Positions 7,131-38,814 of a stretch of 64,000 bases of DNA are shown piece after piece (the first letter of the stretch is position 1; each line of letters opens with the position of its first letter). The DNA comes from Sphyrna mokarran. Lineage: Eukaryota. The notes under the pieces were generated by a model that searched no databases, was not told the origin of the DNA, and saw only the letters and a program-made list of their open reading frames with translations. Where the stretch lies: NCBI GenBank assembly GCA_024679065.1, contig JAGIQG010000040.1, positions 9,176,001 through 9,240,000 of the forward strand. Direction: 5' to 3'. Position numbers and translations under genes: made by a program.

Positions 7131-7176
7131 ATGAGGTCGGCGATTTCTCTCAGTTTGTTGTTGACTTTCTTATCGG
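7131..7176 (+). CDS. IGHV: IgH leader exon (MRSAISLSLLLTFLSG)
   Basis: Hydrophobic signal peptide followed by a phase-1 donor gtgagt at 7177. Confidence 0.93.
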
Positions 7177-7970: not shown

Positions 7971-8049
7971 AATTTTTCTCCGGGCCTGTGTCACTGTGAT
8001 TCTATGGGAGTCACAATGCTTAACAAATTGACATCCTCATACAAAAAGC
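7971..8049 (+). other. IGHD: D1 segment (7999-8011, ATTCTATGGGAGT) with 5' RSS-12 and 3' RSS-22
   Basis: AATTTTTCT-12-CACTGTG (7992-7998); CACAATG (8012-8018)-22-ACAAAAAGC (8041-8049). Confidence 0.92.
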
Positions 8050-8350: not shown

Positions 8351-8418
8351 AGTATTTGTCATGCTGTGTCTCACTGTGATAACTGGATGGCACAGCAGTT
8401 ACTGTCAATACAAAAACT
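8351..8418 (+). other. IGHD: D2 segment (8379-8390, ATAACTGGATGG) with RSS-12 on both sides
   Basis: AGTATTTGT-12-CACTGTG (8372-8378); CACAGCA (8391-8397)-12-ACAAAAACT (8410-8418). Confidence 0.92.
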
Positions 8419-8737: not shown

Positions 8738-8776
8738 GGTTATTGTATGACACAGCCCAGAGAATGTGACATTGTG
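8738..8776 (+). other. J 5' RSS, 23-bp spacer
   Basis: GGTTATTGT (8738-8746), 23 nt, CATTGTG (8770-8776). Confidence 0.9.
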
Positions 8777-8824
8777 CCCACTTCAATTACTGGGGACAAG
8801 GAACCATGGTGACGGTGATTGCAG
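8777..8824 (+). CDS. IGHJ: JH segment (HFNYWGQGTMVTVIA)
   Basis: WGQG motif and phase-1 donor gtaaga at 8825. Confidence 0.96.
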
Positions 8825-14935: not shown

Positions 14936-15509
14936 AACCAGGAACATTTGAAGAAGTTGGGAATCGAGAGCCTGCGTAAAACTTAGTAAACAAGTTTCGG
15001 CGGAAAATCTTCTCTTTTGGAGTCATATTAGCACAAAGCAAGATTGTAATGGTTGTTGAAGGTCAAATATCTTAGATGAGATAATACTGCAGGAGTTCGG
15101 CAGGGGACTGGTCTGGGACCAACAATCTTATTATTGTTTCATCAATGACACACGTCATCAACTGAGGTCAGAAGTTGAGATTTTCTATGTGCTACATAGA
15201 AGCAGAAAGACAATGCAAAATAAGAAGGGATCTGGCTGTGACTACAAGTCCGCCTGGCTCCCCAATAGCTGGTGTCACTTGGTGTTTATTCCTGTGTGCC
15301 CTAGTTTTTGCTGTAAGTTTCCTTCCCACTCCCTCAGTCTGTCTATTTGTTCACTGATCCGTGTTTCTTAAGAAGGCACCGACATTAAGCAGCTGCCCGG
15401 TGATCCACACTGATTCCTGAACTTTACACCAGCCCTGTTACTGAAAGCTGATCAATGTAGAGAATCGAAAAGATCCTGATGGAGAGAAGAGGAGGAGGTG
15501 GCTCACATG

Positions 15510-17185
15510 ACTCTCTCACTCTCGCCCTACACTTAATCCCGCACCCTCAATCTCTCATCCTCACTCAAAGAAATTCCCTCACTCACCCTCACTTACACAT
15601 CTTTCCTCAGTGACATACTCTCACTCGTCCCCACTCACTCGTCCCCACTCACTCGTCCACACTCACTCGTCCCCACTCACTCATCCACTCTCAATCACTT
15701 ACCTTCACGCGCTCACCCTCACACACTCAACCTCACGCACTCAACCTCATGGTCTCAATCTCACACGCTCACCCTCACGCGCTCACCCTCACGCGCTCAC
15801 CCTCACGGTCTCACCCTCACGGTCTCACCCTCACGGTCTCAACCTCACGGTCTCAACCTCACGCACTCAATCTCACGCACTCAACCTCATGCACTCAACC
15901 TCAGAAAGTCACCGATCCTCATTCATCCTGACTCACTCACCCTCACAGACATACCCACTGACAATCACTCACTCATATTCGCTCACTCACTCTCATCCAT
16001 ACTCACTCACTCACCCACACTCACTCACATACCCTCATTCAACTTCACTTTTTCAACCTCAATCACATACCCTGAATCACTCATCCTCATACCTGCACTT
16101 ATCTGCATTCGCTCATTCACATCCATTCACTCACTCTCACACCGGCACTCATTCACATACATTCACTCATTCATATTCACTCACCCTCACACTTCCTCAC
16201 TCACTCGCCCTCATTCAATCACTGTCACTCAGCCACCAACACTCAATCACCATCACTCATTCAACCTCACTCACCAAATCTCATTCACTGACTTAGAGTC
16301 TCAGTCAGTCACCAACATTCACACTCACTTTTATTCACTCATCACACAATCCACCCTCACTCACCCAGTCTCACTCACTCACTCTCATTCATCCTCGCTC
16401 ACTCACCCCATTCACTCACCCTCACTCAATTACCCATCCTCACTCATCCAGTCTCAATCACTCTCACTCACTGATCGCACTTCCCACCCTCACTCATTCA
16501 GTTTTACTCGCTCTCACTCTCACTCACTCACCTACCCACCCTCACTCAGCCAGACACGCCCCCACACACTCAAGCTCAATGACCCGCTCTTTCTCTCACT
16601 TACATCACATGACCCATTCAAACTCACTCAGACTCACGCGCTACATTCTCTCACACACCCTCACATACTCATCAACACTCAACATCACGCACCCTAACTC
16701 ACAGATCCTCAATCACTCATCCTCACTCAAACACCTTCACTCACTCACTCACTCTCACACAACCACTCATCTGCATTCATTCTCCCTCACACACTATCAC
16801 ACACCACCTTCAATACACACCCTGACTCAGTCACTCTTTCACCCTCATTCACTCACTCGCACTCACTTATCGCCAATAACCTTCACGCATCCTCACTCAC
16901 TCACACTGTTTGTTTCATTCTCGCTCACCGGCTCTCACTTGCCCACCTTCACTCACACATTCAGCCACCTTCACTCACCCATACTCTCTCACACACCCTC
17001 ATTTACTCGCGCTGTCTCACCATCACCCACATTTACTTACCCTCAATCACTCATCCTCGCTCAATGAACTTCACTCACTCAGCCTCATTTACGCACTTTC
17101 CATCACTCACACACCATCACTCATCCACTCTCACTCATTCAATCGCTCACCCTCACGCACTCACATTCGCCCACTTACATTCACT
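15510..17185. repeat. (CTCA/TCAC)n C-rich tract containing a 14-bp tandem unit (ctcaccctcacgcg) at ~15700-15900
   Basis: Directly visible; G is strongly depleted on the + strand. Confidence 0.9.
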
Positions 17186-17249
17186 GAATCTGTGTGGGGA
17201 GGTCTGCAACGAAAGAAAAGGAAGGTTTCAAGCGGCATTTTGGTGCTTA

Positions 17250-17950
17250 AATGTGGGAGCTGCCCCGGGAGTGCAGAGAGCTGGAGGGAATCGCTGGCGA
17301 CTCGGGGTCAGAAAAATGGCAAAGAGTCAGGGGAGAACAGGAGGCGTGGGAAAGGGCAGAAACCAGTGGGAAGGAGGGGTGGGAGAAGGGCAGAGAGCCA
17401 GAGGAAACAGCAGAAACGAGGGGAAAAGAGCACACAGCGTGGAAAAGAGTAGAGAGAAAGGAGAAAGGGCAGGGAGTAAGAGGAAAGGGCAGAGAGACTA
17501 GTGAAAGGGGAAAGAGCCGAGAGAAAAGGCAAAGTGATTGGGGAAATGACAGAGACAAGGGACAGGAGGGAAAACCAGGAGAAAGGGGGAGGAGACACGA
17601 AAAGGGGCAGAGAGGTAGGTGAAAGGCCAGAGAGCCGAGGGAAAGGGCAGAGAGCCCAAGGGAAAGGGGAGGAGAGTCAGAGGGAAATGTCAGAGAGCTG
17701 GGGGAAAGGAGAAAGAGGTAGATAGCAGGGCAGAGGGCAGAGCTGAGGAAAAGCGTAGGGGACTGAGGGAAATGGCAGAGAGTCGGGGGAGAGGGCATAA
17801 AACAGGAGGGAGGTGTAGAGAGCCAGGTGGAAATATAGAGAGCTAAATGAAAGAGAAAAAGAGCCATCGTGAAAGGCAAGGAGCCAATGGATAGGGCAAA
17901 GAGTTGGGCAAAATGGGCAGAGCGAGTGATGGTTGGGTGGAGTGAGGTGG
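17250..17950. repeat. Purine-rich (GA/GGGCAGAGAG) tract
   Basis: Recurrent gggcagagag and gggaaaggg motifs; pyrimidine-poor + strand. Confidence 0.85.
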
Positions 17951-18894
17951 TTCAAAATAGAGATAGCACAACAATCAGGTCATCTGTAATCTCAGTGAAT
18001 GATGGAGGAGACTTCAGGACCCGAATGGCCAATTCTTGTTGTTAATGTGTGATCCTTCAATTAGTCAGTGTAGTGTTTACTTGAATTTGTAATCGCAATT
18101 AGAATTTCCTGATCATTCAGTAAGTATTCATTCTGAAGGTATTTTTGAAACAAAGTCAGTAATCTTCGTTTTATGGAGTGAGAGGCAGTGAGTTGGAGAG
18201 TGGGAGGGGCATCAATCAGTTTGAACACAGGCGATTTCTAAAACTAGTGGAAATGCCGGCGTTAGGTTGGTATGGACACTGTAAGGAGTCTCACAACATC
18301 AGGTTAAAGTCAACAGGTTTAATTGGAATCGCAAGGTTTTGGAGCTCCATCGGGTGAGTGGATGATATGAATGAAGAGACAACTTCTTCATCACAAAGTG
18401 CTGTTGTTTGAGAAATAAATAGCTGCTGCAATAATGGAGAAAATGTTTGTTTTGGTCTGGTAATCCAATGAATGGTACGTCATTTTGAGACTATCAGAAT
18501 GTCTTTTTTTGTTCCTAATTTGATAGAGGTGGAGACAGGGATGTGAGTTTCTACAGAGATGATAATTCCCAAATGATAGAAGTAACGTAATCTCAAAGGT
18601 GGATGAAAGATTTAATCGGGAAATGTTAGGAAAAGTTCATAATTCTAATCGATGTTCGAAATAGAAGCATAGAAAAAAGAAGCTGGAGTAGGCCATTCGG
18701 CTTTTTGAGCCTACTCTGCCATTCAATTTGGTCAGAGCTCATCAATATTCTGACCATATCGACTACCCATACCCCTTCATCCCTTTAACACCAACAACTA
18801 TGTCGAATATATAAACCTATTTGTTACAACATGTTTGTTGACTAAATAAACACAAATAAGAGTCTAACTTATTCAATTGGCTATTCTTTTCCAG

Positions 18895-19194
18895 TGACAC
18901 CATCTCCGCCCACTCTCTACAGCCTGGTCTCCTCCTGTCAGCAACAAAATTCTGACGGCTCCATCACCTACGGATGTTTGGCGATGGATTACTCTCCAGA
19001 TGTCTCCAAACTAACGTGGAAGAAAAATGGGCAGCAGGTCAACTCTGGGTTTAAGACTTATCCATCAGTGAGAAACACGAAGGGAACCTACACCCTGAGC
19101 AGCCAGTTAACCATCAGCGACTCAGAGGGAGAATGCCCCAAAATTGACTGTGAAGTTCGACACCGTGACACAGTCAAGAGCGTTGAAATGCCAT
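18895..19194 (+). CDS. IGHM: IgM Cmu1 exon
   Basis: ttttccag acceptor and gtaagt donor, 300 nt; [14 protein letters not shown]...[10 protein letters not shown]...TWKKNG...CEVRH. Confidence 0.95.
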
Positions 19195-19344
19195 GTAAGT
19201 GTTGTGAGACCTTGGTAAGAGAGGGGCGCTGTGGATGGACTGTATAATATCTTAGCTATAACTGATTTGTAGCACTCTGAAAAGAAAATAAATTGTGCAA
19301 AATCCAAGTAAATGTCTATGACTGAAAACTTGCTCAACTATTGA

Positions 19345-20060
19345 AATGTTGCAGCGTAGAAAAAAAACATTTAACCCATTATATCTGTGCTGGCCAGAAG
19401 GGAGAACAAATAAATTAGCCATGCATTTTAAGGCCTCTTTCTAGCCCTTGCTTCGTAGCCTTGCAGGTACACTTGAGATGCAGATCCAGATAACTTTGAA
19501 ATGAGCATGCTCCCCAGTGATTGAACCCTGCACTTGGGGAATGAATCATTTCTACCTACGTCCCTTATAATTTTGTGAACCACAATTACGTCACACCTCA
19601 GCTCCTCTTTTTCTAATAAGAACAACCCCTGCCTATCCAGTCTTGCCTCATAGCTGCAATTTTCAGGCACTAGCAACATTTTTGTAAACCTCATCTCTCT
19701 CCAGAGTCATTACGTCATTTCTGCAACTTGGTGGCCAGAATTGTGCAGCAAACACCAAACGTGGCTTAACTAGTGTTCTATACAGCTCCACCATTGCATC
19801 ACTGATTTTGTGTGCAGTACCTCACACATTGGCGGAATTAATCCGAAATGCTTTCTTAATCATCTTGTCCAGTTGCCCTATCATCTACAAGCAACTGTGG
19901 ACATGCGCTACAAGGTCTTGCATTTCTAAAATCTGTCTCAACGTTCTGTTTTATTGAATATTTCCTTGCTTTGTTTACCCGCCGCAAATGCATCGTGTGA
20001 CACATTTGACAGTTTAATTCCATTCACCACGTCCCCGCCAGTTCAACAAAACAATGGATA
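19345..20060 (-). mobile_element. CR1-type LINE 3' fragment
   Basis: Minus-strand ORF remnant RFTKM...LGLF.LEK..LR.D, typical of the CR1 ORF2 C-terminus. Confidence 0.75.
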
Positions 20061-20160
20061 TAATTCCCAAATCGGCAGTTTTTGTACTGAAATAGAATAA
20101 CTAATTTGAATTGTTGTTAATTAAATCTTCAAGTAACATCTAAACATGTGTTTGTTGAAG

Positions 20161-20466
20161 GTGACATCTCTCCAACCGTTATCCTCACCGTGAGTTCCAG
20201 TGAAGAAATCACAAGCAGGAAATTTGCAACCATCATCTGTTCAATCATTGATTTCCAGCCAGCGTCAATGAAGGTGAAGTGGCTGAAGAATGGACAACCC
20301 GTGGATTCAGGAATTGTCACATCTCCCGCCTGTCGAGTGAATGGGAACTTCTCGGCCAGCAGTCGGCTGACAGTCTCCGCTCGGGAATGGTTCAGGAATG
20401 CGGTCTATACCTGCCAGGTCACTCATCAAGGAATCACCCAGAGTCAGAACATCAGTGGGTCTGTGG
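20161..20466 (+). CDS. IGHM: IgM Cmu2 exon
   Basis: gaag acceptor and gtaaga donor; (C)[29 protein letters not shown]...KWLKNG...[14 protein letters not shown]. Confidence 0.93.
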
Positions 20467-20556
20467 GTAAGAGACTCAAACAGAGGACAAAATATATCAT
20501 TCCATGTTAATCGGAATTAGGGATCTATTAAAGTGGTACAAACCATAGAACAACTA

Positions 20557-21700
20557 AGGCGTTTGATAAGGTAGCCCATGGAAGACTTCTGTAGAAAATG
20601 CAGATGTATGGGATAGAGGGTGATTTAGCTAATTGGATTAGGAATTGGCTAGCAGATAGAAGACAGAGGTGGTGGTTGATGGGAGATATTCATCGTGGAG
20701 TTCGGTGACAAGTGGTGTACCTCAGGGGTCTGTTTTGGGGCCCCTGCTGTTTGTAATCTTTATAAATGATCTGGATGAGGGTATTGAAGGATGGATTAGT
20801 AAATTTGCAGATGACACTAAAGTCGGTGGAGTGTTAGATAGTGAAGAGGGGTGTTATAGTTTGCAGAGGGACTTGGACAAGTTGCAGAGCTGGTCCGAGA
20901 GGTGGCAAATGGAGTTTAATGTGGAAAAGTGTGAGGTAATGCACTATGGAAGAAATAATAAATGTGTAGAGTATAGGGCTAATGGTAGGATTCTTAGTAG
21001 TCTTGATGAACAGAGGGATCTTGGTGTGTCTGTGCATAGATCCCTGAAAGTAGGCAGTCAAGTCGAGAAGGTTGTTAAGAAGGCATATGGAGTCTTAGCT
21101 TTTATTGGTAGGGGGATTGAATTTCGGAGCCGCAACGTCATGTTGCAACTGTACAAAACTCTAGTGCGGCCGCACTTGGAGTATTGTGTGCGTTCTGGTC
21201 CCCACATTATAAGAAAGATGTGGAGGCATTGGAGAGGGTACAGAGGAGGTTTACCAGGATGTTGCCTGGTATGGAGGGCAGGTCTATGAAGAGAGGTTGA
21301 AGGATTTGAGGTTGTTTTCGTTAGAAAGGAGGCGGCTAAGAGGGGATCTTATTGAAGCATATAAGATGATTAGAGGTTTAGATAGGGTGGACAGTGATAG
21401 CCCTTTTTCCTAGGATGGAGAAAGCTAGCACGAGGGGACACAGCTTTAAATTATGGGGTGATAGTTATAGGACGGATATCAGAGGTAGGTTCTTTACCCA
21501 AAGGGTGGTTCGGGAGTGGAATGCCCTGCCTGCAGCAGTTGTAGATGCGCCAAGTTTGGTGGCGTTTAAGAGTTAGTTGATAAGTATATGGAAGAGAAGG
21601 GAATGGTTTAGTTTGGAGGGGCATTGTTTTTTATATTGGTCGGCGCAACATCGAAGGCCGAAGGGCCTGTTCTGTGCTGTAATGTTCTATGTTCTACGTT
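20557..21700 (+). mobile_element. 5'-truncated CR1 LINE (RT to 3' tail)
   Basis: GVPQGSVLGP and FADD motifs, a frameshift near 21190, and tail gaagggcctgttctgtgctgtaatgttctatgttcta. Confidence 0.93.
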
Positions 21701-22508
21701 CTGTGTAGTTTGCTGCATTAGGACAATCCCTCGTTCAGCATTTCACCAGAAAAGCAATTGTTCGTTATTCTTTCATGAAATGTGCATTTATTTGCCAAAC
21801 CTGAGGGCACTTAAGTGTCAACCACGTTGTTGTGAATATGGAGTCACATGCATGCCAGGCCAGATAAAGGCAGCAGATTTACTTTGCTGAAGAGGATTTG
21901 TGAACTTGGAGAGATTTTACAGCAATGGCTTCATGATAATCATTTGAACTTTTAATTATAGATGTTTATAGAATTGAGATTTCATATTTGCAATGATGAG
22001 ATTCGAATCTGTGCCCCCAAAGTTTTGCTGTAGGTTACAAGTTCATTGACCAACACCATATGCCGCTGTCTCCCCTTGAAAGAAAGCTCCCTTCCAGTTT
22101 GAAGTAATATAGTCAGCGAGGTGGCCTTGATGTCAGCTTTTTCCATAGACAGCTGGTAAGATTTGGAGAGACAGTCGGTATCGGACTGTTTCATAGGTCA
22201 CAGCATAGGAGAAAATATTGGAAAGTGCATCCACCCTATTTATAAGCCAATGGTCAGTACTTTCTCCCTGAGTTCAAGATTGTGTGTTTATTTGGGAATT
22301 CAGCAATGCTGATTCATGGAAATGGTACCTCTGCTACACTATTTAATACAGGGAATAATTCAAGAGCAAGTTGGTTTTCTATTCGCCATGGAAGTTGAAA
22401 AGCGATAGTTAGAGACTGATATATTGAAGGCGACTTCGTCTTCTTCAGGCTGAAGACTGTTGTCCTGCTGAAAGGGAACTCGAGTTCATTTTCATTCTTC
22501 ATTCACAG

Positions 22509-22817
22509 ATCCTTCCCAGTGCCATGATGCCGCAGTGACGATACAGCCGCCACCAATAGAGCAGGTCTTACTGGAGGCGACCGTGACTTTAACCTGCATC
22601 ATTTCTAATGCTCCTTATGGAGTTAACGTGTCCTGGATCCAAGACAAGAAGTATGTGAAATCAGAGATTGCCTAAATTCCAGGAGCGGATCCTGACAGCG
22701 TGATGAGCAAATTAAACACCTCGACACAAGCCTGGCTGAGCGCGGTTGTGTTTGAGTGCGTGGTGAGCCATCAGGATCTGCCGACTCCTTTAAGAACATC
22801 TATCCACAAGGAAACAG
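22509..22817 (+). pseudogene. IGHM: IgM Cmu3 exon with an in-frame premature stop (TAA 22673-22675)
   Basis: cacag acceptor and gtgagc donor; [30 protein letters not shown]...VSW...SEIA*IPG...[21 protein letters not shown]. Confidence 0.93.
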
Positions 22818-22844
22818 GTGAGCTGAGAGATTCAGACAATAAAT

Positions 22845-23558
22845 GTAGGGTCGACGGCAGCGTTCTGAGAAACAGAGAGAACTTGGAGTTCATATCCCCA
22901 GATTCTGAAGATTGCCACTCAAGTGAATAGAGCCGTGAAGAAGGCTTATAGTGTGTTAGCATTTATGAACAGGGAGTTTGAGTTTGACAGCTGTGGGGTT
23001 ATGCTGCAACTATATCGGAACTTGGTGAGACCACATTTCGAATATTGTGTTCACTTCTGGGAACTATAAGAAGGATGTGGAAGGATTCGAGAGAGTGCAG
23101 AGGAGATTTCCCAGGAGGCTGCCTGGTTTGGAGGGTAGGTCTTATGAGGAAAGATTGAGGGAGCTGCGGCTTTTCTCTTTAGAGTGGAGGAAGATGAGAG
23201 CCGAATTTAATAGAGGTTTATAAGATGATGAGAGTGATGGGGACGTGCAGAGACTATTTTCTCGGGTGGATGTAACTGTTATTAGGGGGCACAACTGTAA
23301 GGTTCATGGTGAAAGATGTAGGAGGGATGTCCGAGGTAGATTCTTCACTCAGAGAGTGGTTGGGATGTGGAATGCACTGCTTGCTGTGATAATAGAGTCG
23401 GACACTTTAGGAACTTTCAAGCGGTTATTGGATAGGCACATTAAGCACTCCAGGATGATAGGGAGTGGGATAGCTTGATCTTGGGATTGAGCATAGCTTG
23501 GTACAACACTGAGGGCCGAAGGGCCTGTACTGTGCTGTATTGTTCTATGTTTCTATGT
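22845..23558 (+). mobile_element. CR1 LINE 3' fragment
   Basis: Degenerate LVRPH.EYC and RGRFFTQRVV motifs plus a gttctatg tail. Confidence 0.88.
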
Positions 23559-23929
23559 AATTGCATCACTGTGTCTATCCCCAGTGGAAATGTACTGGTC
23601 AATGTTTAGTATTCAGTGCATTAATGGTCTCCCCTGAACTAAACGTTTCTGGGCCAATCGATATTTTTACGGGGAAGTTTGACGTGTTGACGAATGAAAT
23701 GTGAACTGAAGGCGATATTATTGAGTATAGATCAAAGAAGAAGCGAGGAACCTGATGTCGAGCATAAAAACCAGAAAACCAAAAAGAAGAGTAGATCAGT
23801 TGGCCCGAATGGCCTGATTCTGTGCTGTAAACTTTCTGAAACTTTCCAGTCCGCCCCCCGAGTTATTTGAGAAAATAATTGTATCCACCTGTCCTCCAAG
23901 CTGGAAGTCAAAAATAGAAAAGTTTACAA

Positions 23930-25337
23930 TGTAAACGCTGTTTTAAAAAAGGTAGCAGTCAAAAAGGCAGGGAAATATAGTCCCGTTAGTTTAACGTTTT
24001 GTAGTCAGAAAAATGCTCGAATCCGTCATTAAAGAAGAAATAGCGAGACACGTAGAAAAGAATGGTTTGATCAAGCGGACACAGCATGGATTCATTAAGG
24101 GGAAGTCGTCTTTGACGAATTTATTGGATTTCTATGAGGATGTGACTTGTACGGTCGATAGAGGCGAACCGGTGGATGTGGTGTTTTTAGATTTCCAGAA
24201 GCCGTTTGATAACATGCCTCACAAAAGGTTGCTGCATAAGGTTAGGGTGCAAGGAGTTGGGAGTATGGTATTAGCGTGAATAGTGGATTGGTGTTTGTCT
24301 AATAGGAAGCAGAGATTAGGACTCAATGAGCACTATTCTGGTTGGCAGTTAGTGACTAGTGGAGTGTCCCAGGGATCTGTGCTGGAGTCTCAACTGTTTG
24401 CCACATACATAGATGATCTGGAGGAAGGGACTGAGTGTAGGGGAACGAAATTTGCTGATGACACGAAGATGAGTGGGAAAGCAAATTGCGTGGAGGTTGT
24501 GGAAAGTCTGCGGAGGGATCTGGATAGTTTGAGTGAGTGGGCGAGGACCTGGCAGATAGAGTATAATGTTAGAAAGTGTGAAGTCATCCACTTTGATAGA
24601 AATAATAGTAGGAGGGATTATTATTTAAAAGGCGAAAAGCTGCAGAATGCTACGGTGCAGAGGGACCCCGGGGCTCTTTGTGCACGAATCACAAAAACCC
24701 AGTCTGCAGGTGCAGCAGGTTATCAAAAAGGCGAATGGGATGTTGGCCTTTATAGCGAGGGGGATAGAATATAAAAGTAGGGACGTCTTATCGCAATTGT
24801 AGCTGGTGCTGTTGAGGCCGCAGCTGGAGTACTGTTTGCAGTTTTGGTGGCCGCATTTGTGGAAGGATATATTGGCCTTGGAGGAAATGAAGAGAAGGTT
24901 CTCTAGGCTGCCTGTGAGGAGAGATTGAGCAGGCTAGGTTTGTACTGGTTGGAGTTTAGAAGGTTACGCGGAGGGGGATCTTATAGAGACATATAAGATA
25001 ATGAAGGGGATGGATGGGAGAGAGGTACAGAGGATGGCAGAATTAGAGGGCACAGCCTCAAAATAAGGGGGGTTAGATCGGAGTTGAGGAGGAACTTCTT
25101 CACTCAAAGGCTGGTGAGTCCCCGAAATTTTCTGCCTGTTAAAATGGTGGAGGTTTCCTTGCTAATTATATTTAAGTCACGGGTAGATATGTTTATGATA
25201 TACAGGGGAAGTAAGAGTTAAGGGGAGAAAGCGAGTAAGTGGAACTGAACCACTTCAGATCAGCCATGATCTTACTGAATGGCGGGGCAGGCTCGGGGGT
25301 CTAGGTGGCCTACTCCTGCTCCTATTTCTTATGTTCT
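23930..25337 (+). mobile_element. CR1 LINE fragment, second subfamily
   Basis: QHGF, DF.K.FD and FADD motifs; tail cctactcctgctcctatttcttatgttct. Confidence 0.9.
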
Positions 25338-25436
25338 AAAATTGAAATTGCAGCATATTTTCCTGATATCTAACTAGCGGTTTCATTGTCTCCAGAATTC
25401 TCCAGTTTATTGGCATTTATTGTACATTTTCTGCAG

Positions 25437-25828
25437 ATCCAAATCCACGGGAACCGTTGGTCTCTGTCCTCCTGCCCTCCGCAGAAGAAATCTCCGCTCA
25501 GAGATTCGTCTCCCTCAGCTGCTTAGTGAGAGGTTTCTCTCCCCGAGAGATCTTCGTCAAGTGGACCGTCAACGACAAGCCGGTGAATCCCAGGAACTAC
25601 AGGAACACCGCGGTGGTGGCGGAGAACGGCAATAACTCCTTCTTCATGTACAGCCTGTTATCCATTGCAGCAGAGGAATGGTCCAACGGCGCTTCTTACT
25701 CCTGCGTGGTGGGACATGAAGCCATCCCCTTGAAGATCATCAACAGAACAGTTGACAAATCCAGCGGTAAACCCAGTTTTGTGAACATTTCCCTTGCACT
25801 GATGGACACTGTTAATTCCTGTCAATGA
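25437..25828 (+). CDS. IGHM: IgM Cmu4 exon plus secretory tailpiece
   Basis: ctgcag acceptor; ...[10 protein letters not shown]...[11 protein letters not shown]...; tail [20 protein letters not shown] with NIS sequon and penultimate Cys. Internal donor G|gtaaac after 25766 serves the membrane form. Confidence 0.97.
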
Positions 25829-25843
25829 GAATCACTCGTTTAC

Positions 25844-25861
25844 ATTAAATACTTCAATAAA
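25844..25861 (+). terminator. Poly(A) signal, secreted form
   Basis: ATTAAA at 25844 and AATAAA at 25856-25861. Confidence 0.8.
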
Positions 25862-26614
25862 AAATCTTTTCCTCTAATGACAAATGAAATACCCAATTAT
25901 TTAATTGGTTGCTTTTCATTTTTACTTCCGTTATAAATTTTTAGTTTGAGTCAGATATTTTTCATGTCTCGGAACTAAATCTTGCTGAACCTGTGCGCTC
26001 TGCCTAGATACACACAGATACAAAACAAATTAAACACATCATTACAGGATTCAGGAAAATATCTTCATAGTCTTTCCTCCCACTGAGGAGAGATATGACA
26101 ATTTCAACAATTCTGACAAACATAACATTTAGATTTCAGTGTTCCTGTTTCTCTCATTGTTCATTCCTTTATCCATTGATGACAGCTTTCAGCTGCTGCA
26201 CCACACCCACTGAAGTGAGTGTCACACAGAAACATGGAGCAACTATCCCCCCATCAGAGAGAGGGAGGAGCAATTGTTAACATACCGGATTCCTACTCAC
26301 CCAACAAAGAGAGAGGAGGGGCAATCGCTAAGCCATGTCCCACCACTTCCTCAATGAAACGAGGAAGAATGTCATTATTTAATCCACTCTACCTTCACCT
26401 CCTGGGTGGTTAGAACCATCAGAGACATTGCATTACCGGATAGACACAGGTAAACACTGAGCTCGCTCTCCTTCCTCTCCCCAAGTAGCGTGTTTGGAAG
26501 GGAACGACTCTTTACTGTAAGGACCCAATTGCCAACAGTTCAAATTAGTTTCCGGTTTACTTGCTATAGATTTTGAAGTATCACTTTCATTACCAATGTG
26601 TCCTTCAAGTATGT

Positions 26615-26616
<2 letters not shown>

Positions 26617-26648
<32 letters not shown>

Positions 26649-27870
26649 AATATAATACATATGCAACATAATTCAAAAATGTTTCAACACTCTTGTTCCT
26701 GTTAGCCATGTGCTGACATCGATTTCCCATAATACAAATTTAAACACATAATTGAATCCTACCCGGATTTCACTGTTCTGTTACTGAGGTTTCTGAGATG
26801 CATCAATGAATTATTTCATTCGTTCTCTTCACATCACCGTGCCCTTCACATTTAAACAGCAAACTCCGAAAATATGCTCCATTACTCGGATTGTTTGGAT
26901 CACGTTCAGTTAACGATTATATAGACACACTGATATCATTATGTCCAACACATAAAAGAAATTTAAACAGCAAAACTCTAAAATATACTCCATTACTCGG
27001 ACTGCTTGGATCACGCAGAATTAATGATTGTCCGTGAAACTTGAAGCAACAGTTAAAAAATAAACACACTGACCATACTACACAAAACTGTCACAGTTAG
27101 AAATACAGGTGTAGGCGTATGTATACACAGACACGAATTTATCGGCTCGTGCTTACACAAACTGGCACTAAAAAAAAACAAACGTTCATAATCAAATACA
27201 TACAAAAACTCACACACACATATACACATAAAACACACAAGTTCATATTCTGACGTGAATCGGTACACAGACCAAACACAAACACAGACATGCATAGACA
27301 CAATACAGACACATGCATGCAACCCACATAAATGCACAAACACACACATACTCACAAAAATCAAATAAGTTACTCAAATATATATATTTATTTATTTGTA
27401 GCACACATTCACGCTGACAGGAGTATAGATATAGAGATACACAATGATCTACACATTAACAGACATATATGGAAATGCATATAAACAAATAAGCAGACTG
27501 CACATAGATGAATTGACAGCAAAACATTTGTACACAAACATTAACATGCTCATACAGAACAGAACACCGTAGCGCACATTATTACATGTCGAAACACAAA
27601 CATATGTCAAGATATCGTTATAAAGAACTGTCAACACGTACATAGATACATACATGTTAACAGGTACACACACAGACTCATGGGAAAACAGACACAGACG
27701 GAAAGGGAAACAAACAGTAATAGAATGACAGAAATTGCAACATCGTAATAGATATGCACCCATTAAGAGTGATATTAACACATATACATAAAATTAACAC
27801 AGTAATAGCCATACATACATAATGACAGAAGAAAAAAATTTTCACAGAGATGCAAACACACAACAGTACA
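26617..27870. repeat. (AC)n microsatellite, ~111-bp duplication (26850/26961) and AC-rich tract
   Basis: Directly visible. Confidence 0.8.
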
Positions 27871-28529
27871 AATCAACAAACACTGACAAATGAATGCGTA
27901 CATTAAAGCTCTTGTACATATATTAACTCAGAGCCAAAGATAAATGCAGACCACGAGATGCTCAAGCACAAAATCTTAAATAAAAATGGTAGGTAAATAA
28001 AGTAAAATTTAAACATGAATTTTAAAGGGCATGTCTACCGACAACTCGCCCAATGTACGTTGCATCAAGAACAAGTTGAGAAACTAAATTAAGCTAGTGA
28101 TCTACTAACTATTGCCACCATAAATAAGAAAAGATAAGAAATTATATCCCAGTTGTTAAACAACAGCATTCACAGTTTACAGATCAGTAACCATCTGTGA
28201 AAACAATCATTGATCAGTGAATGTTCCTCCATATCAGCCATAACATTCTTCAAAAAGGGTTCGTGCTAAATTGATCAAAAATGAACGGATAGGCAAGAAA
28301 ACATCTTAGTGCTTCCTGACACGGACTGTCCAAGGAATGTACATAAAGATCAACTGTGAAAATAGTTACAGAGATCGGTTTTTGAGTGTCCTGAATTTAG
28401 CAGTAGATAGAACTTGAAACGTATACAGAGAATAAATTAACAGCTTATGAAGAAGGAACAGAAAAAAAATATAAGATTCCCTGCATAAATAAAGTAGTCT
28501 ATTTTCAATTTCTGGTCTCCGCCCCCTAG

Positions 28530-28657
28530 ACCCCACCGACGGCATCTGGATTGAATACAATGGGGGTGATAACAGCAACATCTGGACAACCGCTTCCACA
28601 TTCATCGTCCTGTTCTTCCTGAGCATTTTCTACAGCACTGCCGTCACTCTGGTGAAG
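28530..28657 (+). CDS. IGHM: IgM TM1 exon
   Basis: ccctag acceptor; [43 protein letters not shown] with the conserved antigen-receptor TM motif; donor gtgaga. Confidence 0.95.
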
Positions 28658-28795
28658 GTGAGATTATTCAATTCGTTCACATTTGAAACGGGCTGAACGG
28701 ATTTAAAAATCTCTCAATGTTTCACTGATTAAAAACTGTAACATTAATGTCCCGCATCACAAACATCTGCTTCATTATGTATTATTATTTTACAG

Positions 28796-28804
28796 ATCAA
28801 ATGA
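28796..28804 (+). CDS. IGHM: IgM TM2 exon (IK-stop)
   Basis: ttttacag|ATC AAA TGA, giving cytoplasmic tail KIK. Confidence 0.9.
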   Translation: MK

Positions 28805-29255
28805 TGGGTTAAATTTTGGACGCTGCAGATTTCCGTCAGCTGATTAGCAAGATCTCTCAGTGATTCATGTACAATATCTCCTCTTGGTGACTCTATCAGT
28901 AAAATTCTTACAGTTTTTTATTCTGAATCTGAAACTAAAACAATCATAGACCTTATTTCAATTTTTCGTGTGAAATATGCGAGATATTATTATTATAAAT
29001 ATAATTATGTTAATAGTTTTCCCGTAGTTTAAATTTCAGGTCTAAATAAGAAATTGTTCTAATTCCTTATTCATATTTTCTAATGCCTCATTCTATGAAT
29101 GTCCTGTTTTCTCTTTCTAGTGTATGGAACATATGTATAAATATTGACGAATTCCCTGTGCATGTGTTCTGTTCTCAACGTGAAGCTCGGTCGCTACGTT
29201 CACTTTCGTGACTTTAAAAAATAATTTTGCTGTAAAATGTTCTCTGAATTTTTAA

Positions 29256-29272
29256 AATAAATTTTGAATAAA
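29256..29272 (+). terminator. Poly(A) signals, membrane form
   Basis: Two AATAAA hexamers (29256, 29267). Confidence 0.7.
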
Positions 29273-29416
29273 ACTTTAACCATCTCTGGCTTGGCTTAAT
29301 TCTGTCCTCCAAACCCATCACATCTGCTCCATTTCCCATATTGTAGGTTTTTCTCCCCCTTTCCCAGACAAGCATGTTCCCCCAGTCATGGGCGGGATGT
29401 GGTTGATTCAGTCACT

Positions 29417-29433
29417 GCACCACCCAGTGGCCA
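29417..29433 (-). promoter_or_regulatory. Candidate CTCF site at the 3' edge of the IgM cluster
   Basis: Minus strand reads TGGCCACTGGGTGGTGC, close to the CTCF consensus. Confidence 0.45.
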
Positions 29434-29719
29434 ATCTGTGTAAAACACCTTAATCTCTGCCTTTTTATAATAAAATCCAGAGACAGAATGAGTGAAGAAT
29501 GAGGAGACCTCCGTAATTTCACTCATAAACTGGTCTGTCACTGACCGAGATTCAGGTAATTTTAAACAGCAACGGTTCTGCTTCATCAGCGGCCGATGCA
29601 GGATCGTGTTTGGCAGGAAATAGTTTCCTTTACCCTGCCCCTCAAAAACACTATCAGAGTCGCTACAGTGTGGGTTAACAGAGTAAAATTCTCTCTATAT
29701 CGTCAGATGAAATACGTAC

Positions 29720-32700
29720 AAGGCAGGCATATCACACGCTAGATAGAGAACACATACAGAACAGAGGTGAAAACCATGAGGTGAAACCAAGAGATTGAGG
29801 TGTATTTCATGTAAATACACAATAGATTACAAATGTCCAAATTATGTCTAGTGTTATGGGATAATTTGAGGTGACCAATACTGTCTTTAACTACAGAGAA
29901 TATAAAACTCACGAGGCAGATATCTCTGTGTAAGGACGGAACATTTATTTAAAACCTAAACACAACAAGCAGCTGTTCGGAGTTGACAAAAAGGGTTAAG
30001 AATCCCTGGGATACAGCGGCAGGTCCTTTCCAATGAATCTAATGTGTACAATCACTAACAAATCAATTACAGATTTTTTTACAGATCATTCCCGACTCAT
30101 ATTAGTTCAAAAACCATTACGTTCAGTAAACATAAAGCAATAATAATTCCTAGTAAGTTTCTCAGCCAATCGCATTTTATAACCCATTTTATAATCATGA
30201 TATCTCCCTCATCCATTTAAATCGGAGGCTGACTCATCTGTAATCTGTATCTGGGGGAATCAGAAAGATGAAACAGCGTCATTCATTCACAGAGTTTTAT
30301 AGCATAGAAGCAGGTCCTTCGGCGCAACATATCTATGCCGTCTTCTTAAACTGGTAAAAAGGTCCCTATTGCCCGCGTTAGGCCCATATCTCTCGATAAC
30401 CATCTTACTCATGTAACTTCCATAGGGTTTATTTTTAAAGACAAAATTATACCTGCCTGTGCCACTAGCTCTGGCATCTTGTCCCAGACATTCACGACCT
30501 TTTGTGTGAAAAAAATGTCCCTCTGCACTCTTTCATATCTTTCCCTTCTTACGTTAAACCTATGCCCTCTAGATTTAGACAGCGATGCAGTGGGAAAAGA
30601 TATCCATTATCTAACTGATACGGGCCCGATATTACTTTATAGGCCTCTATAAGATAACCACTCAGCCGCCTGCACTCCAAAAAAAATCTATCCAATCAAG
30701 TTACTTGCCTTTAGTAGCAGAAGCATTGATGAAAAGCGACCGCTGGAGCTGTATAAAACTCCCATGATGCCACGGTTAGTGTACCACGTGCAGATTCATT
30801 AGGATGATACTGGTGCCGAACCACTTTAACAAGGAGAATAGTTTCGATTCATTACACATTCGAGGATTCGGTTCACTGCACATACAGACGTTGCTGTATT
30901 AGAAAGAGTATTAAGGATATTCAACAAGATGCTACCTGGACTGAAGTTTGCGGCGATGAAAAAAGGCTGGATGACCTGGGGTTATTTTCTTTAAAGTGGA
31001 GAAGATGAGAGGAACTTCACTAATTGTACCAAACTATGAGGGATATAGATAAACCAGATGAAAATAACCATTGTCCTTAGTAGAGGTGTCAATAACCAGG
31101 GGCATAGATCTAAGGATAGGAGAATGATATTGACAGGGGATTTGCAGAAAAGGAAAAGAAAACAAAATCTTGTTAATCTAGAAAGTGATGGTAATTGAGA
31201 ACTCAATGCCTGAAAATATGGCAGGAGAAAGAACCCTCACATTTAAGAAACATTTGGATCAACACTTGAAACATAGCATGCAAGGAAGCGAATCAGCTGT
31301 TGCAAAATGGGATGCGATAAAATAGGCGTTATATGGCCGAAGGGCCTCTTTCAATGCTGGAAGTCTCTATCACTACATTATCTCTTTCAGGAAGTTAGCA
31401 ACTGTCGTAACTCAGCATTTAGAACAATAACAGTGGCTGTGAGCACTGTGTTATGGGCCTTACATCTCTGAAGTCCTGTATCTAAAGCCCAATAGTGTCT
31501 GATTCTAGAGAGACGGAATACACATTGGTCTAAATTGATGAAAGCCAAGCACGTACTGATGTATGTTTTACCCAGTGAGCTTGGTGAAGGGACATAGCAG
31601 AACCTTCTTCAGGTCCTCTCGGAATTTGGTTTGGGTGACTGGGTAGATGAAGACGTTGTTGCAGGAACTGACTAGCTGAAGCAAGTTTGCTGTTTCCTGA
31701 AAGATGTACCGTGGGTCTTCGAAATCCAGGCTGGTGCGGTAGCCCACACCTGTAATCCAAACATAGAGGAAGTATATGACATAGGTGACCCAGAGGAGGA
31801 GGAAGCTGAGGGCGATGGCGAAAAGCAGGATGATGGACCTCTTGCGGTTGGCCATCTCTGGGTCCCCGTGACTCTCCGTGCCCCGGAGTCTCCTGCGAGC
31901 TCTGCTGGCCGCTAAGATGTGTTTTACGGTCAGAGCGTTAAGAAGCAGGATGAGGAGGAACGGGAGAAATGGAGTTAAGGTGTTGTCCAGCCAGTCATAG
32001 GCCTGCCAGGCGGGCAGCGTGTAATAACTGGACTTAAAAACACAGAACCAGGGCACCCCGTCCAAGGTGTACAAGGGCTGGTAAGCGAAGTAGAAAGGGA
32101 CATTCCTGACACAGCTCAGGATGCAGACTATTCCTATAACCAGCAATACGGTTTTCTCGGTACAGTATCTGGTCTTCAGCCTCTGGCAGCAGATGGCCAC
32201 AAAACGGTCGATGGTGAAAGCCACTGTCAACCAGACAGATGAATCCCGGGTAAAATAGACCAGCAGATTGCTGAATGTACATGCGGGAGTGGTTGACAGG
32301 ACGCTGTTCTGAAAGTAGATGCGGCCAATCCGGTTGAGGATTACGGCAGTGATGATGACAAGGAAATCAGTCAATGCTATCGCGATAAGATAGTAGGTGA
32401 TGGACCGTGACAGTCCGCACCGTCCTCGGAATAAGATTACGATGGTCACCAAGTTGGCTGTGAGATAGAAAGAGACAGAGAGAGGTGTTACTAGGAGGAC
32501 TATAAACACTAGCTGCTGCGCTAACCAATCAGTTACTGAGAACGGCTCCATCCTTCATTTTCCCAACTCCAGTCTCCATTGATTGTAAAATCTTGGCAAT
32601 AGCACTACATTCAAAACGGGATTAAAGTTATTTTCAATTAGGGGCAATCAGGCCAAATTTTATCTCTGCGCTCTTGTCACTGAGTTGATCCCGTCAAATA

Positions 32701-35550
32701 ATAATCAAATTTCAGATACTACAGGAAAATTTGCTGTCACTGTTCTTCGTACTAATTCCATCCATCCATCAGCCTTAGCAGCCCTCTTTCAGGCAGCGTC
32801 TCTGTATTTATAATATCCTCCTTCAAATTTTAAACCCCTCCAAATTTTGCCTTTCCAGGTTTTGATAACATGCTACAGCAATCTGAGATCACACTGTATC
32901 TCCGAGTGTGGACTTCAATGCCCCTGGTTTTCAATTTGCCTTTACCTGCCAAGACCCTAACCTCGAGAACACCTTCTTTCAAAGACTAAACTTTCCGTTG
33001 TGCTTCAGGACGATCCTCAGAAAATAAATTTGTTGAACAATTCTAAGTCATTTTTGTCGTCAGTATAAAGTTGATTTGTTAAAGACTTGTGAAGTGTCCC
33101 CATTCTACTGATCGGGGTGTCTGAAGAAACAAACGCCTCATCGCCTTCTCAAATGAAAGCTAGAGGTGGACAAGATATATTGGAGGTCGGAACATCGTTT
33201 CATGTAACCACTGAATGTAAGCTCTATGTCAATGAATCTAATTGAATTATTAGATTGCAATAACTCATTTTACTGAGACTGTGCATACTAGTGGATGAAA
33301 TACAGGCCACATTATAGACTTTATTCTGCACAATACTGAAAATATTGCAAGGCATTTTGCTACATTAAACCTGAATATTCAACAATAAAATGTTAAAGTT
33401 ATGCAACGCCATACAGTTCAAGTCATGCAAATGATTTGGAACTTTTCCCCTACCAGGAACACCAATGGCAGCGAGAATGGGATAAGAGATGGCGAAGAAG
33501 ATACCTTTCGCTGGTCCATGCATCCTCTCCTAGTAAGTGAAATGAAGTTTAAACCTGAGTTTCGCGGTGGTTTCATTGTGTCCCACATTTATTCTGAGTG
33601 AGCGTCTCCAGAGGTTTAATTAAGTTGGAACCTGCACCTTAGTTACAGGCCGGTGAACAAACAGATTCACTCATTGTCTGGTACCGCCATTGCACCATTG
33701 GCAAACATAGAAACAAAGAACATTATAGCACACTACAGGCCTTTCGGCTCTCAATGTTGTGCCGAGCTATGTCCAATCGCAAGGTCAAGCTATTTCCTCC
33801 TTATAATTCTGGAGTGCTCCATATGCCTATCCAATAACCGCTTGAAAGTTCCTGAAGTGTCCGACTGCACGATCATAGCAGGCAGCATATTCCACATTCC
33901 AATCGTTCTATGAGTAAAGAATTTACCTTGGACATCCCTCCTATAACTCCCACCATATTTGAACCTTTTATTTATGCACCCTAGTAACATGGTACATCGA
34001 AGCGAAGAAATATTCTCTGCATGTCCACTTTATGAATTCCTCTCATCATCTTATAAACCTGCAGTAAGTCGCCTCCTCCACTCCAAAGAGAAAAGCCCCA
34101 GTTCCCTCACCTTTCCTCTAAGACCTACTCTCCAAACCACGCAGCATCCTGGTAAATCTCCGCTGCACTCTCTCCAATGTTTCTACATTCTTCTTTTAAT
34201 GAGGTCACCAGAACTGAACACAATACACCAAATGTGGTCTCACCAACGTCCGGTATATTTGCAGCATAACTCCATGGCTCTTAAACTTAAACCCCCTGTT
34301 AATGAAGCTAACACACCCTTAGCCTTCTTCACAACTGTATTCACTTGAGTGGCAACCTTCAGTGATCTGTAGATATGAATCCCAAGATCTCTCTGTTCCT
34401 CCACATTCCTTAGAACCCTGCCGTTGACCCTGTAATCTGCATTCAAGTTTGTCCTACCAAAATGAATTACCTCACACTTATCAGGTTTAAACTCCAACTG
34501 CCACTTTTCAGCCCAGCTCTGCAACCTATCAATGTCTCTTTGCAGCCTGCAAGAGCCCTCCACCTCATCCATAACTCCACCAATCTTAGTCTCGTCAGCA
34601 AATTTACTAACTCACCCTTGAGCCCTTTCTTCCAAGTCATTGATAAAAATCCCAAAAAAACAGAGGACCCTGCACTGACCGCTGTGGTACACTGCTAGTA
34701 ACTGTCCTCCAGTTTGAAATCTTTCCCTCCACCACCACCCTCTGTCTTCTATGTTACAACCAATTACTTGTTCAATTGACCAAACTTCCTTCTATCTACC
34801 AGCTCCGTATCTTCTTCATGAGCCTACCACAAGGAGACTTATCAAACGTGTTACTAAAATCCATGTATACAACATCAACAGCTCTACCCTCGTCCACACA
34901 CTTAGGTACCTCCTCAAAGAATTCAAACAAATTTGTGAGACAGGACTTATTCCTCATGAAACCGTGCTGACTATCCTGGATTAAACTGAATCTTTCCATA
35001 TGGTCATAAATTCTATCTCTCAGGACTTTTTCCATTAACTTACCGACTGTGAAGTAAGACTAACTGGCCTATAATTACGAGGGACATTCTTATTTCCTTT
35101 CTTGAAAAGAGGAACAACATTTGCCACTCTCCAGTCCTCTGGTACTATCCCTGTGGACAGTGAGGACCAAAGATCAAAGCTAAAGTCTCTGCAATTTCAT
35201 TCTTTGCCTCCCAAAGTACCCTAAGATGTATCTCATCTGATCCAGGGGACTTATCGACCCTCGGGCTTTTGAAAATTGCTAATACATCTTCCCTCTGAAC
35301 ATCTACCTCCTGGATCCTATCGTCCTGTATCACACACACATCCTCAAAAACATGGCCCCTTTCCTTAATGAACACTGAAGAATAGTATTCATTCAATGCC
35401 TCAACTATCTCTTCTGACTCCATGCACAAGTTCCCACTACTATCTTTGACTGGCCCTAACCTCACCCTGGTCATTCTTTTATTTCTTACATAAGAGTAAA
35501 AGGCCTTGGGGTTTTCTTTAATCCGATCTACTAAGTATTTCTCATGTACT
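29720..35550. repeat. Left arm of large inverted segmental duplication
   Basis: 30702-35550 is the reverse complement of ~38905-43923; 29720-30696 is the reverse complement of ~47003-47973. Confidence 0.9.
31568..33523 (-). CDS. GPR139/GPR142-like class A GPCR, copy A (319 aa; exons 33523-33454 and 32457-31568)
   Basis: Exon 1 MHGPAKGIFFAISYPILAAIGVP with gtaggg donor; exon 2 starts ANLVTIV; seven hydrophobic segments, DRF motif, open frame. Confidence 0.9.
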
Positions 35551-35820
35551 CTCCTATCTCTCCTCAGTCCTTTCTTTAACTCATTCCTAGCTACATTGTA
35601 ACACACAATTGACCCAACTGAACCTTTTTATTTCATCCTTGCGTACACTTATTCTTTTCCTCTTGTCAAGACATTCATTCTCCTTTGTGAACCATGGTTC
35701 CCTCACTTGGCCATTTCCTCCCTGCCTGCCAGGGACATACCTATCAAGGGCACGCAGTGTTTGTTCCTTGAAAGAGTTCCACTTTTCGTTTGTGCCCATA
35801 CCTGACAGTTTCTGTTCTGA
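33705..35820 (-). mobile_element. Degenerate CR1 LINE
   Basis: Fragmented RT ORFs (QHGF, DFS.TFD, KSPG.D.IH); tail catagaaacaaagaacatt at 33706. Confidence 0.9.
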
Positions 35821-35896
35821 CCTGAGGTTGTGAAAGTTGCTATATAAATGCAAGTACTGTCAACTCCAGTCTCTTAGCAGCAGCATCATCAATATT

Positions 35897-36395
35897 TCAC
35901 CAATGGGGTAATGAGCAAAGTTCAGTCCTGAATCCGGTAAACAGCCGCACAATCAGAGCAGTGCAGTGATCTGTGAACTCGCTGGTGTACCAGTAGGCTT
36001 TATGATCGAACAAAACACTTTCCATATGTGGAGTATGTGGAAGATTACTCCGCGGTGTAAATTCGGTATTTTGTCTGCAGAGTAGATGAATTAATAAATC
36101 GCTTCCCACATTCGGAGCAGGAAAATGATCCCTCATTGGTGTGAACTCACTGGTATATCAGCACATGCGATATCGAATAAATCCCTTTCCACACTCAGGA
36201 TTGGTTTTTCCCCAGTGTGAACGCACTTGTTTATCAGCAGGTGGGATGGTCGCGAAAATCCCTTTCCACATCCAGAGCAGATGAACGGTCTGTTCTCAGT
36301 GTGAATCTGCTGGTGTGTCAGCAGATTCGAGACTAAGTGAATCCCTTCCCACACTGAGGGTAGATGAACGGTCTCTCCCCAGTGTGAGTACACTG
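35897..36395 (-). pseudogene. C2H2 zinc-finger gene remnant
   Basis: [23 protein letters not shown]...HTGEKP with frameshifts. Confidence 0.8.
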
Positions 36396-36620
36396 ATGAA
36401 AATGCCGCATTAATGAACGGGCAATAATCATTTCTCCCTTCGATATTTGCCAGACGAATGCTTTTAAATTTTGATGTTCAAGATAAGTTGTACAATCAGA
36501 TTGAAAGTAAAGATTATGTTCCTGAATTAAGTGAGATGGGCTCTAACCGTTGGAACCTGCAGCAACACAGCGTAGTTGAACATTGCAGGTCGGCAGGATT
36601 GCTGTTTCTTGCTTCCAAAT

Positions 36621-36690
36621 GTTTCTGTAATGTAGTTTTTATCACTTCCATCCAACACGCGAAAGTTTCCTGATTCAAAACTGTTTCTAG
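36621..36690 (+). pseudogene. tRNA-Val pseudogene
   Basis: Degenerate copy of the 36979 gene inside a ~355-bp tandem duplication. Confidence 0.75.
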
Positions 36691-36978
36691 TACACGCAGT
36701 AGTTTGCTTTTATTGCTGAGTACAATTGATTGAGATTGTTCAAAGTAAGATCAGAATGACCCATTAATGAATGGGCAGAAATCACTGCTCCCTTGGATAT
36801 TTGGGAGACGAACACTTTTAAATTTGGATGTTCGGGATAAAGCTGCAATCAGATTCAAGTAACGGTTACCTTCCTGAATTCAGTGACATGGGCTCTCAGT
36901 CTAACCATCAGAACCTGCAGTAACACAGCGGAGTTGAACATTGCAGACAAGCAGATTTGCTGCAACATGCTTCAAGCT

Positions 36979-37051
36979 GTTTCTGTAGTGTAGTGGCTAT
37001 CACGTTCGCCTAACACGCGAAAGGCCCCTGGTTCGAAACCAGACAGAAACA
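36979..37051 (+). tRNA. tRNA-Val (AAC)
   Basis: 73 nt with perfect acceptor stem GTTTCTG/CAGAAAC, anticodon arm TTCGC-CTAACAC-GCGAA and TTCGAAA loop; one T-stem mismatch. Confidence 0.85.
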
Positions 37052-37129
37052 TTCATTAGGCTTTCCCATGTCGAGTAAGGAGAAAGCTGTTTGTTGCTCA
37101 AAATTATCCGAACCTCGATGTTAAAGGCA

Positions 37130-38755
37130 TATTATCTTCTCTCTGACTTCACCCTCAAATGATTTCTGTGAAATAAGGAACACTTTTTATTTGATGCACT
37201 AACGGGAAAGATCGATTTTGACACCGAGAACATATTCGCATCTCGTTCAGTCTACAACAGAATTTAATGGGTTTATGGGTGCAGACTAATATGGTTAATC
37301 ACCATCTGAAATATCTGATAGTAGTGTGTGCTCAGTAGGACAGATACAAGTGATACTGTAAGTGAGCTGGAGGAAATGGCGCACATTTCAAAGGAAAATC
37401 TTTTCTAAATCGTTTTTCAGCACTCAGAAACAGGAAAAACCATTCTGACAGATGAGGTAATCGATACTCAGTGCGGACCTACTTGATTTTCCTATAAAGG
37501 AATTTATGTGTCTGAATGTTACACGCCCATAACAAAAAAAGGCTCAAAAGTCACCAACAGATAATACTTAAATCACTTCCAGTTTGAACTAGTTGATTTT
37601 TTTTTTAAGAAAAACTGATTCTGCTGAATGTTAAAGTTGTGATCTGTATTACCCGGTGACTCGATTCATTTTGTTGGCCAGTTATGTTTACAATTTAGTG
37701 ATGTTCAATTTGAGACATAAGCCATTTGATAATGAAGACGTATTTGTTCAATAATAGATTGATACTGAATATTGAAACAAATACTGTGCACAATTGTACA
37801 ATGTGCTTTGACAAACTTTCATCTCGACTCGAAACGTCAGCTCCTTTCACTCCTTATAGATGCTGCCAGTCCTTGTGAGACTTGCTATGATCCTTAAAGA
37901 CATGTTATCATTGCTCTGACTTCACCCTCAAATGCTTTCTGCGAAATGAGATACGCACTTTTTGACACACTGACAGGAAAGTTCGATTTTGACACCGAGC
38001 ACATATTCGCATCTCGTTCAGTCTATAACAGAATTTAATAGGTTTATAGGTGCAGATCAATATGGTTAATCACCATCTGAAATATCTGATAGTAGTGTGT
38101 GCTCAAAAAGACAGATACCTGTGATACTATAAGTGAACTAGGGGAAATGGCGCACATTTCAAAGAAGAATCTTTTTTTAAAATCGCTTTTTATCACTAAG
38201 AAACAGGAAAAGTCATTGAGACAGACGAGGGAATCGAGACTCTGTGCGAAACTTCTGGATATTCCTGTAACGGGCCGGAATTTATGCGCCTGAATGTTTC
38301 ACATCCATAATAAAAAAGGCTCAAGGGGCACTAACAGATAATTCTTGATATTCCTCCATTTAAATGGAGTTGACTTCTTTTAAAGGCTGACGATATTCAA
38401 TCTCAGAATTGCAGTCTGTATTACCCGTTAATTGGGTTCGTTCTGTTGGTCAGTTATGTTTTCAATTCACTGATGCTCAATTTCAGAGGTATTCAATTCA
38501 TAATGAAGACATATGTGTTAAATAATACATTGATACTAAATATTGAAACGAATTTTGAGTACAATTGTACAATGAGCTTTCATAAAGGGTCATCAGGACT
38601 CGAAATATCCGCCTTTTCACTCCTTACAGGTGCTGTTCAGATAGTGTGAGATTTTGTACCATTTTCTCTTTCACCATCCGCAGCAATTTGCTTTTATTTC
38701 TGAGATATTTGGTTGTGGTTATTCGAAGAAAGATGAAAATGATGCATTATTGAAT
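37130..38755. repeat. ~775-bp tandem duplication
   Basis: ctctgacttcaccctcaaatg at 37141 and 37914; an inverted relative lies at 52690-54030. Confidence 0.85.
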
Positions 38756-38814
38756 AGGCAGATATCATTGCTCTCTTATATATTTGGGAGATGGAAGCTT
38801 TAGCTTACCAGGCA

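Follow-up and report, generated by a model that had tools for sequence, protein, structure and literature searches.

The window, a stretch of 64,000 nucleotides from Sphyrna mokarran (contig JAGIQG010000040.1, positions 9,176,001 to 9,240,000), carries an IgM heavy-chain cluster in which a single in-frame TAA interrupts Cmu3. Most likely the cluster is an ordinary null copy, inactivated recently within a redundant array of about 30 clusters, and does not represent a new form of antibody. The stop is private to this cluster, and a stop or frameshift was found in six of the 29 complete IgM clusters surveyed in the genome. A very recent pseudogene or null allele was the first of the options put forward in the original prediction, and it is the one that best fits this evidence.

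Organization of the IgM cluster

One V, two D and one J segment with compatible 12/23 recombination signal sequences (RSSs) lie within about 2 kb, followed by four Cmu exons, a secretory tail on Cmu4, TM1 and TM2, which together make up an elasmobranch IgM heavy-chain cluster (Table 1). The segment order is that of the elasmobranch IgM minilocus (V-D-D-J-Cmu1-4-TM). V, D1, D2 and J are separate segments with their own RSSs, and no germline-joined VDJ is present. The cluster departs from the minilocus in its premature Cmu3 stop and in a weakened D1 5' nonamer. Leader, V, D1, D2, J, Cmu1, Cmu2, Cmu4 with its tail, TM1 and TM2 are all open and have canonical splice sites. In one protein search the nearest named protein was the IgM heavy chain of Triakis scyllium (P0002), to which the domains are 81-93% identical. 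Elsewhere in the genome, the V most similar to the window VH matches it at 90-91% identity.

The D1 5' nonamer reads AGAAAAATT, with two changes relative to the ACAAAAACT of most paralogues. The RSS retains the A5-A7 core of the nonamer and the heptamer, and a private change weakens the nonamer. The locus apart from the stop had been described as intact; this holds for the coding exons and splice sites and fails for the RSSs, since the D1 5' nonamer carries these two changes. The JH heptamer is the variant CATTGTG, which is common to the window and an orphan V-D-J at G000:C994:9018872. Three private amino-acid changes in the TM1 spacer (28530-28657) are common to the window and a sister copy of the C region, described below, and remove acidic residues of other clusters. 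Downstream of the cluster, C2H2 zinc-finger-like coding stretches occupy 58375-58625 on the minus strand.

Table 1. Features of the window, and IgM clusters with coding lesions in the genome
Feature	Position	Strand	Remarks
Leader exon	7131..7176	+	Intact
VH exon	7307..7614	+	Open; 23-spacer RSS at 7615-7653 directly after
D1 (segment 7999-8011)	7971..8049	+	12-spacer 5' RSS, 22-spacer 3' RSS
D2 (segment 8379-8390)	8351..8418	+	Two 12-spacer RSSs
JH (segment 8777-8824)	8738..8824	+	23-spacer RSS
52-kb duplication arm	15086..64000, on to 67168		Partner G000:C994:9088381-9140883, inverted in the scaffold, ends at an N run
Near-identical C tract	16000..29500		0.20% substitutions relative to the sister outside two LINE-like inserts; putative recent gene conversion
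Cmu1	18895..19194	+	300 nt, intact, same as sister copy
Cmu2	20161..20466	+	306 nt, intact, same as sister copy
Cmu3	22509..22817	+	309 nt, phase-1, AG/GT-bounded, splice sites intact, one nonsense codon
In-frame TAA	22673..22675	+	Codon 55 of 102 in Cmu3; GAA in sister copy; Glu in closest copies
Cmu4 and secretory tail	25437..25828	+	Open; internal membrane-form donor after 25766
TM1	28530..28657	+	Intact, same as sister copy
TM2	28796..28804	+	Two codons and stop
Window cluster			Lesion: Cmu3 stop
10.35M cluster	G000:C994:10334901-10354900		Lone in-frame Cmu1 stop, other exons open
8.93M cluster	G000:C994		Lesion: 8-nt loss in Cmu2
10.09M cluster	G000:C994		Lesion: +2 in Cmu4
8.87M cluster	G000:C994		Lesions: leader and Cmu1
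9.41M cluster	G000:C994		Lesion: V; also short V-J distance and poor V RSS

The Cmu3 stop and lesions in other clusters

The TAA on which the original prediction was built is present in the assembly, in frame within the AG/GT-bounded, phase-1 Cmu3 exon. The genome gave 34 Cmu3 matches, of which 30 were fetched for comparison, and the window copy is the only one of these 30 with the stop. Among the 29 copies of 309 nt, base 22673 is G in 24 and T in one. Owing to this TAA the cluster lacks the reading frame across all C exons that marks a functional IgM gene; with a disabling lesion and its introns kept, it has the form of an unprocessed immunoglobulin pseudogene or null allele.

The survey comprised 33 clusters or pieces, 29 of them complete (leader, V, J and Cmu1-4); those at 3.83M, 5.15M and 9.01M, together with the twin, are incomplete and were excluded from the 29. 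Three Cmu2 acceptor flags were boundary artefacts of longer exons and were not counted, and neither was a TM1 acceptor flag in the 9.41M cluster. For one further cluster, no Cmu4 or TM1 match was found within the 30 kb fetched. Across the array the lesions strike the leader, V and each of Cmu1-4, with no concentration in Cmu3, and four of the six broken clusters have one lesion in one C exon (Table 1). Broken copies in this array thus commonly carry one lesion and are open elsewhere.

Several other loci came to light in the survey. A 436-kb contig (G000:C1082:11292-420775) holds eight IgM clusters that closely resemble one another and mostly alternate in orientation. At G000:C994:3832626 a V exon with leader and RSS has no J or Cmu1 match in 30 kb, and is either an orphan V or the V of another receptor class. 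Near 7.2-7.5 Mb, at G000:C994:7240152, 7418123 and 7471386, lie three divergent Cmu3-like exons (70-79% identity), two of them without a V match nearby, which possibly belong to other immunoglobulin classes.

The sister cluster and the history of the pair

The C region of the window lies in a duplication arm whose partner carries the sister C region, about 99.8% identical to that of the window. The two Cmu3 exons differ at one of 309 bases, the first base of the stop, and the whole of 21628-24214, which includes the Cmu3 splice sites and flanking introns, is the same in both copies except for that base.

No V lies beside the sister C region in the scaffold, and the tip of the sister arm is four bases from an N run, inside the J-C intron. 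From about -32.6 kb up to 15083 in window coordinates, the window and the orphan V-D-J at C994:9018872 are colinear. Past the equivalent of 15083 the orphan piece runs into an insertion, which we take to be CR1-like from its reverse-transcriptase-like translation, and then into a 100-N gap. The orphan V-D-J piece (to 15083) and the sister arm (from 15086) meet within 3 bases, each by an N run, and a genuine orphan status of the sister C region was rejected on these grounds as a probable assembly effect. Most simply, the two pieces belong to a single complete sister cluster divided by a contig placed in the wrong orientation, and the contig G000:C994:9029237-9140886 is probably mis-oriented. 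It lies between 100-N and 41-N runs and, when flipped, joins the V-D-J at 9018872 to the sister C region. The tip of the sister contig is noisy, with 23 indels and 9 substitutions in 515 bp, many of the indels being of one base. The sister V has Cys in place of a Trp that is kept in 30 of 32 V exons.

Divergence between the two members of the pair is uneven. Their V-J-intron halves are 86-90% alike (10-14% divergence over 13 kb), and the intron halves are each other's best match; divergence is 4.7% at 30-44 kb and 0.05% at 51-62 kb. The tracts 16000-29500 (0.20-0.39%) and 51000-62999 (0.05%) sit in a duplication that is otherwise 2-14% divergent. We infer from this mosaic that the duplication is old and that tracts within it were converted later. 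The pattern suggests that the C regions were homogenised recently and that the stop came later. An old duplication of about 100 kb would have given the window cluster and its sister, a recent conversion of about 13 kb would have left their C regions nearly identical, and the stop would have appeared after the conversion, whether it is now fixed or still polymorphic.

Over 11.5 kb of the C tract, window and sister differ by 16 transitions, 7 transversions and 3 indels. Three differences are exonic and all change the protein: the stop and a Ser-to-Asn at Cmu4 25686 in the window, and a Tyr-to-Asp in the sister. The sites of both replacements are constant in 26 of 27 copies; at 25686, Ser is found in 26 of the 27 copies of the same length and Asn is private to the window. 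That all three differences change the protein is not a significant excess, given a silent share of 23% among single changes. A comparison of dN/dS for Cmu3 has no power, as the stop is the sole difference from the sister in this exon.

Validity of the base and of the duplication

An error in the assembled base, with a true codon of GAA and a normal IgM gene, is unlikely. It would account for a lone differing base within a 2.6-kb stretch otherwise the same as the sister, and near-identical duplicates polish poorly. The assembly has gaps and probably a mis-oriented contig at the sister cluster, whose contig tip is noisy. All six contigs of the DNA run X1 that cover 22673 read G, and these same contigs also lack alleles carried by four and six assembled copies (G at 22532 and T at 22606). 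Contig depth at 22673 is likewise all G in X3 and X4, and G in 2521.5 of 2629.1 in X2, from contigs that drop alleles of 4-6 assembled copies. Contigs with such losses cannot exclude a T at 22673. Against an error, the local error signature consists of indels, whereas the differences within the C tract are transition-rich substitutions. None of the paralogues fetched supplies a T, and mis-mapped polishing reads would therefore tend to erase the T rather than create it. The examined exons of the eight C1082 clusters contain no stop or frameshift, so that lesion-making errors appear infrequent, and a single change in the C region creates a stop in only 4.1% of cases.

Slightly less probable again is that window and sister are two alleles of one locus, both retained by the assembler, the stop then marking a heterozygous null allele. 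The two are adjacent in the scaffold, bounded by N runs and colinear over about 100 kb, and their divergence of 0.05% at 51-62 kb is of a kind that alleles might show. The k-mers found only in the pair have a depth of 29-40, near one single-locus estimate of 27 and not clearly double that of one locus, but the per-copy calibrations from two family-wide contigs conflict, the other being 71. A divergence of 10-14% over the 13 kb of the V-J-intron halves, which are mutual best matches in the intron, is old for alleles, and the sequences past the arm are unrelated. Three clusters of C1082 have the same V protein, a group that allelism alone cannot explain.

Rescue by switching or exon skipping

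The original prediction also proposed that the locus could serve as a V donor, its VDJ being rescued by switching to the C region of another cluster. The recipient would most readily be the intact, near-identical C region of the sister, and the locus would be kept for that purpose. This is improbable. V, D, J and the promoter region look usable, an intact and 99.8% identical C region lies about 65 kb away, and according to PMC4279169 V regions in sharks are found expressed together with C regions from clusters other than their own. The same source describes switching as rising after immunisation, alongside hypermutation, so that it would presumably supply no first receptor. The D1 5' nonamer has drifted, the sister owns its V-D-J, and other broken clusters have leader or V lesions that make donation impossible there. 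For sharks, switching between clusters (Zhu et al. 2012, cited in PMC4279169 and PMC5192425) is presented in these sources as a general process for all clusters. It could in principle move the window VDJ to an intact C region, and could do so occasionally, but no feature of the locus singles it out as a dedicated donor.

A related arrangement would follow if the scaffold were right. That an inversion cut the sister C region from its V-D-J and placed it head to head with the window locus, leaving complementary halves, is more doubtful still. Equally doubtful are the composition that this implies, of a V-D-J with a dead C region and an intact C region that lacks a V, with 99.8% identity and some 50 kb between them, and the joining of these halves in B cells by inverted-arm recombination or switching. 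If true, the halves would offer a naturally marked locus at which isotype switching in sharks could be tested.

Least probable of all is rescue by exon skipping, in which Cmu2 would be joined to Cmu4 or TM1 and a functional short heavy chain produced. Both joins are in frame. Cmu3 is, as had been proposed, a symmetric phase-1 exon of 309 nt, and the join from 20466 to 25437 keeps the frame; Cmu1 (300 nt) and Cmu2 (306 nt) are likewise symmetric and of phase 1, so that this property is not special to Cmu3. Nonsense changes can disrupt splice enhancers and lead to skipping, as stated in part of PMC7072976, and medaka membrane IgM joins Cmu2 to TM1 in the account of PMC3141427, a precedent outside sharks. 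Apart from the stop base, the window and the intact sister have the same Cmu3 splice sites and the same introns on either side, so that outside this base the splice signals show no change in favour of skipping. Lesions of the array are not concentrated in Cmu3.

Cmu2 followed by Cmu4 was seen in none of 11 related proteins, a small set in which several are gene models. Protein P0008, with V-C1-C2 and then unrelated Ig domains, was considered as a skipped form and set aside, as it looks like a fused gene model. At 22200-23100, loose ends of the X2 contigs (RNA only by guess) fit the normal Cmu2-Cmu3 and Cmu3-Cmu4 joins of other members. The listed literature, mostly reviews or work on other species, contains no report of Cmu3 skipping in sharks, which does not imply absence in print. 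A hypothetical skipped product would resemble nurse shark IgM1gj in having three C domains. It would be distinct from it, as the original prediction rightly held: IgM1gj is described as lacking Cmu2 and having a germline-joined VDJ, while in the window Cmu2 is present and open, all four C exons are found and V, D1, D2 and J are unjoined. The comparison speaks against skipping: in IgM1gj the exon itself has been lost and the V is germline-joined, and neither is the case in the window.

Conclusions

As a recently inactivated copy, the window cluster should still be able to rearrange its V-D-D-J segments. Its stop-bearing mRNA is predicted to be degraded by nonsense-mediated decay, because the stop sits 142 nt before the next junction, at the Cmu3 donor. 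This is beyond the limit given for mammalian immunoglobulin transcripts in PMC7072976, where decay follows when a stop precedes the last junction by more than 50 nt; the prediction extrapolates that rule from mammals. Any protein would be expected to end halfway through Cmu3, without a tail or membrane anchor. A B cell in this position would need to turn to another cluster for rearrangement, and loss of the window copy would be cheap. Shark B cells are described in PMC2435157 as rearranging one or a few clusters, with non-functional VDJs accompanying a functional one, so that a dead cluster should cost little.

IgM pseudogenes are already known in sharks, and the window copy probably adds one in an array with several. 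For the nurse shark, PMC5192425 gives 9-12 functional Ig-mu genes alongside three pseudogenes, and the Ig-mu pseudogenes named in PMC2435157 and PMC5192425 (G2C, Groups 6-8) are likewise disabled clusters among functional ones. G2C is presented in these sources as a pseudogene in a subfamily of close functional relatives.

The array displays turnover at an early stage in its six broken clusters, and it shows apparent homogenisation of C regions between clusters whose V halves are still about 10% apart. The private stop provides a natural marker, since a mature transcript that carries the window VH must have skipped Cmu3, switched to another C region or escaped decay, so that each of these outcomes becomes countable.
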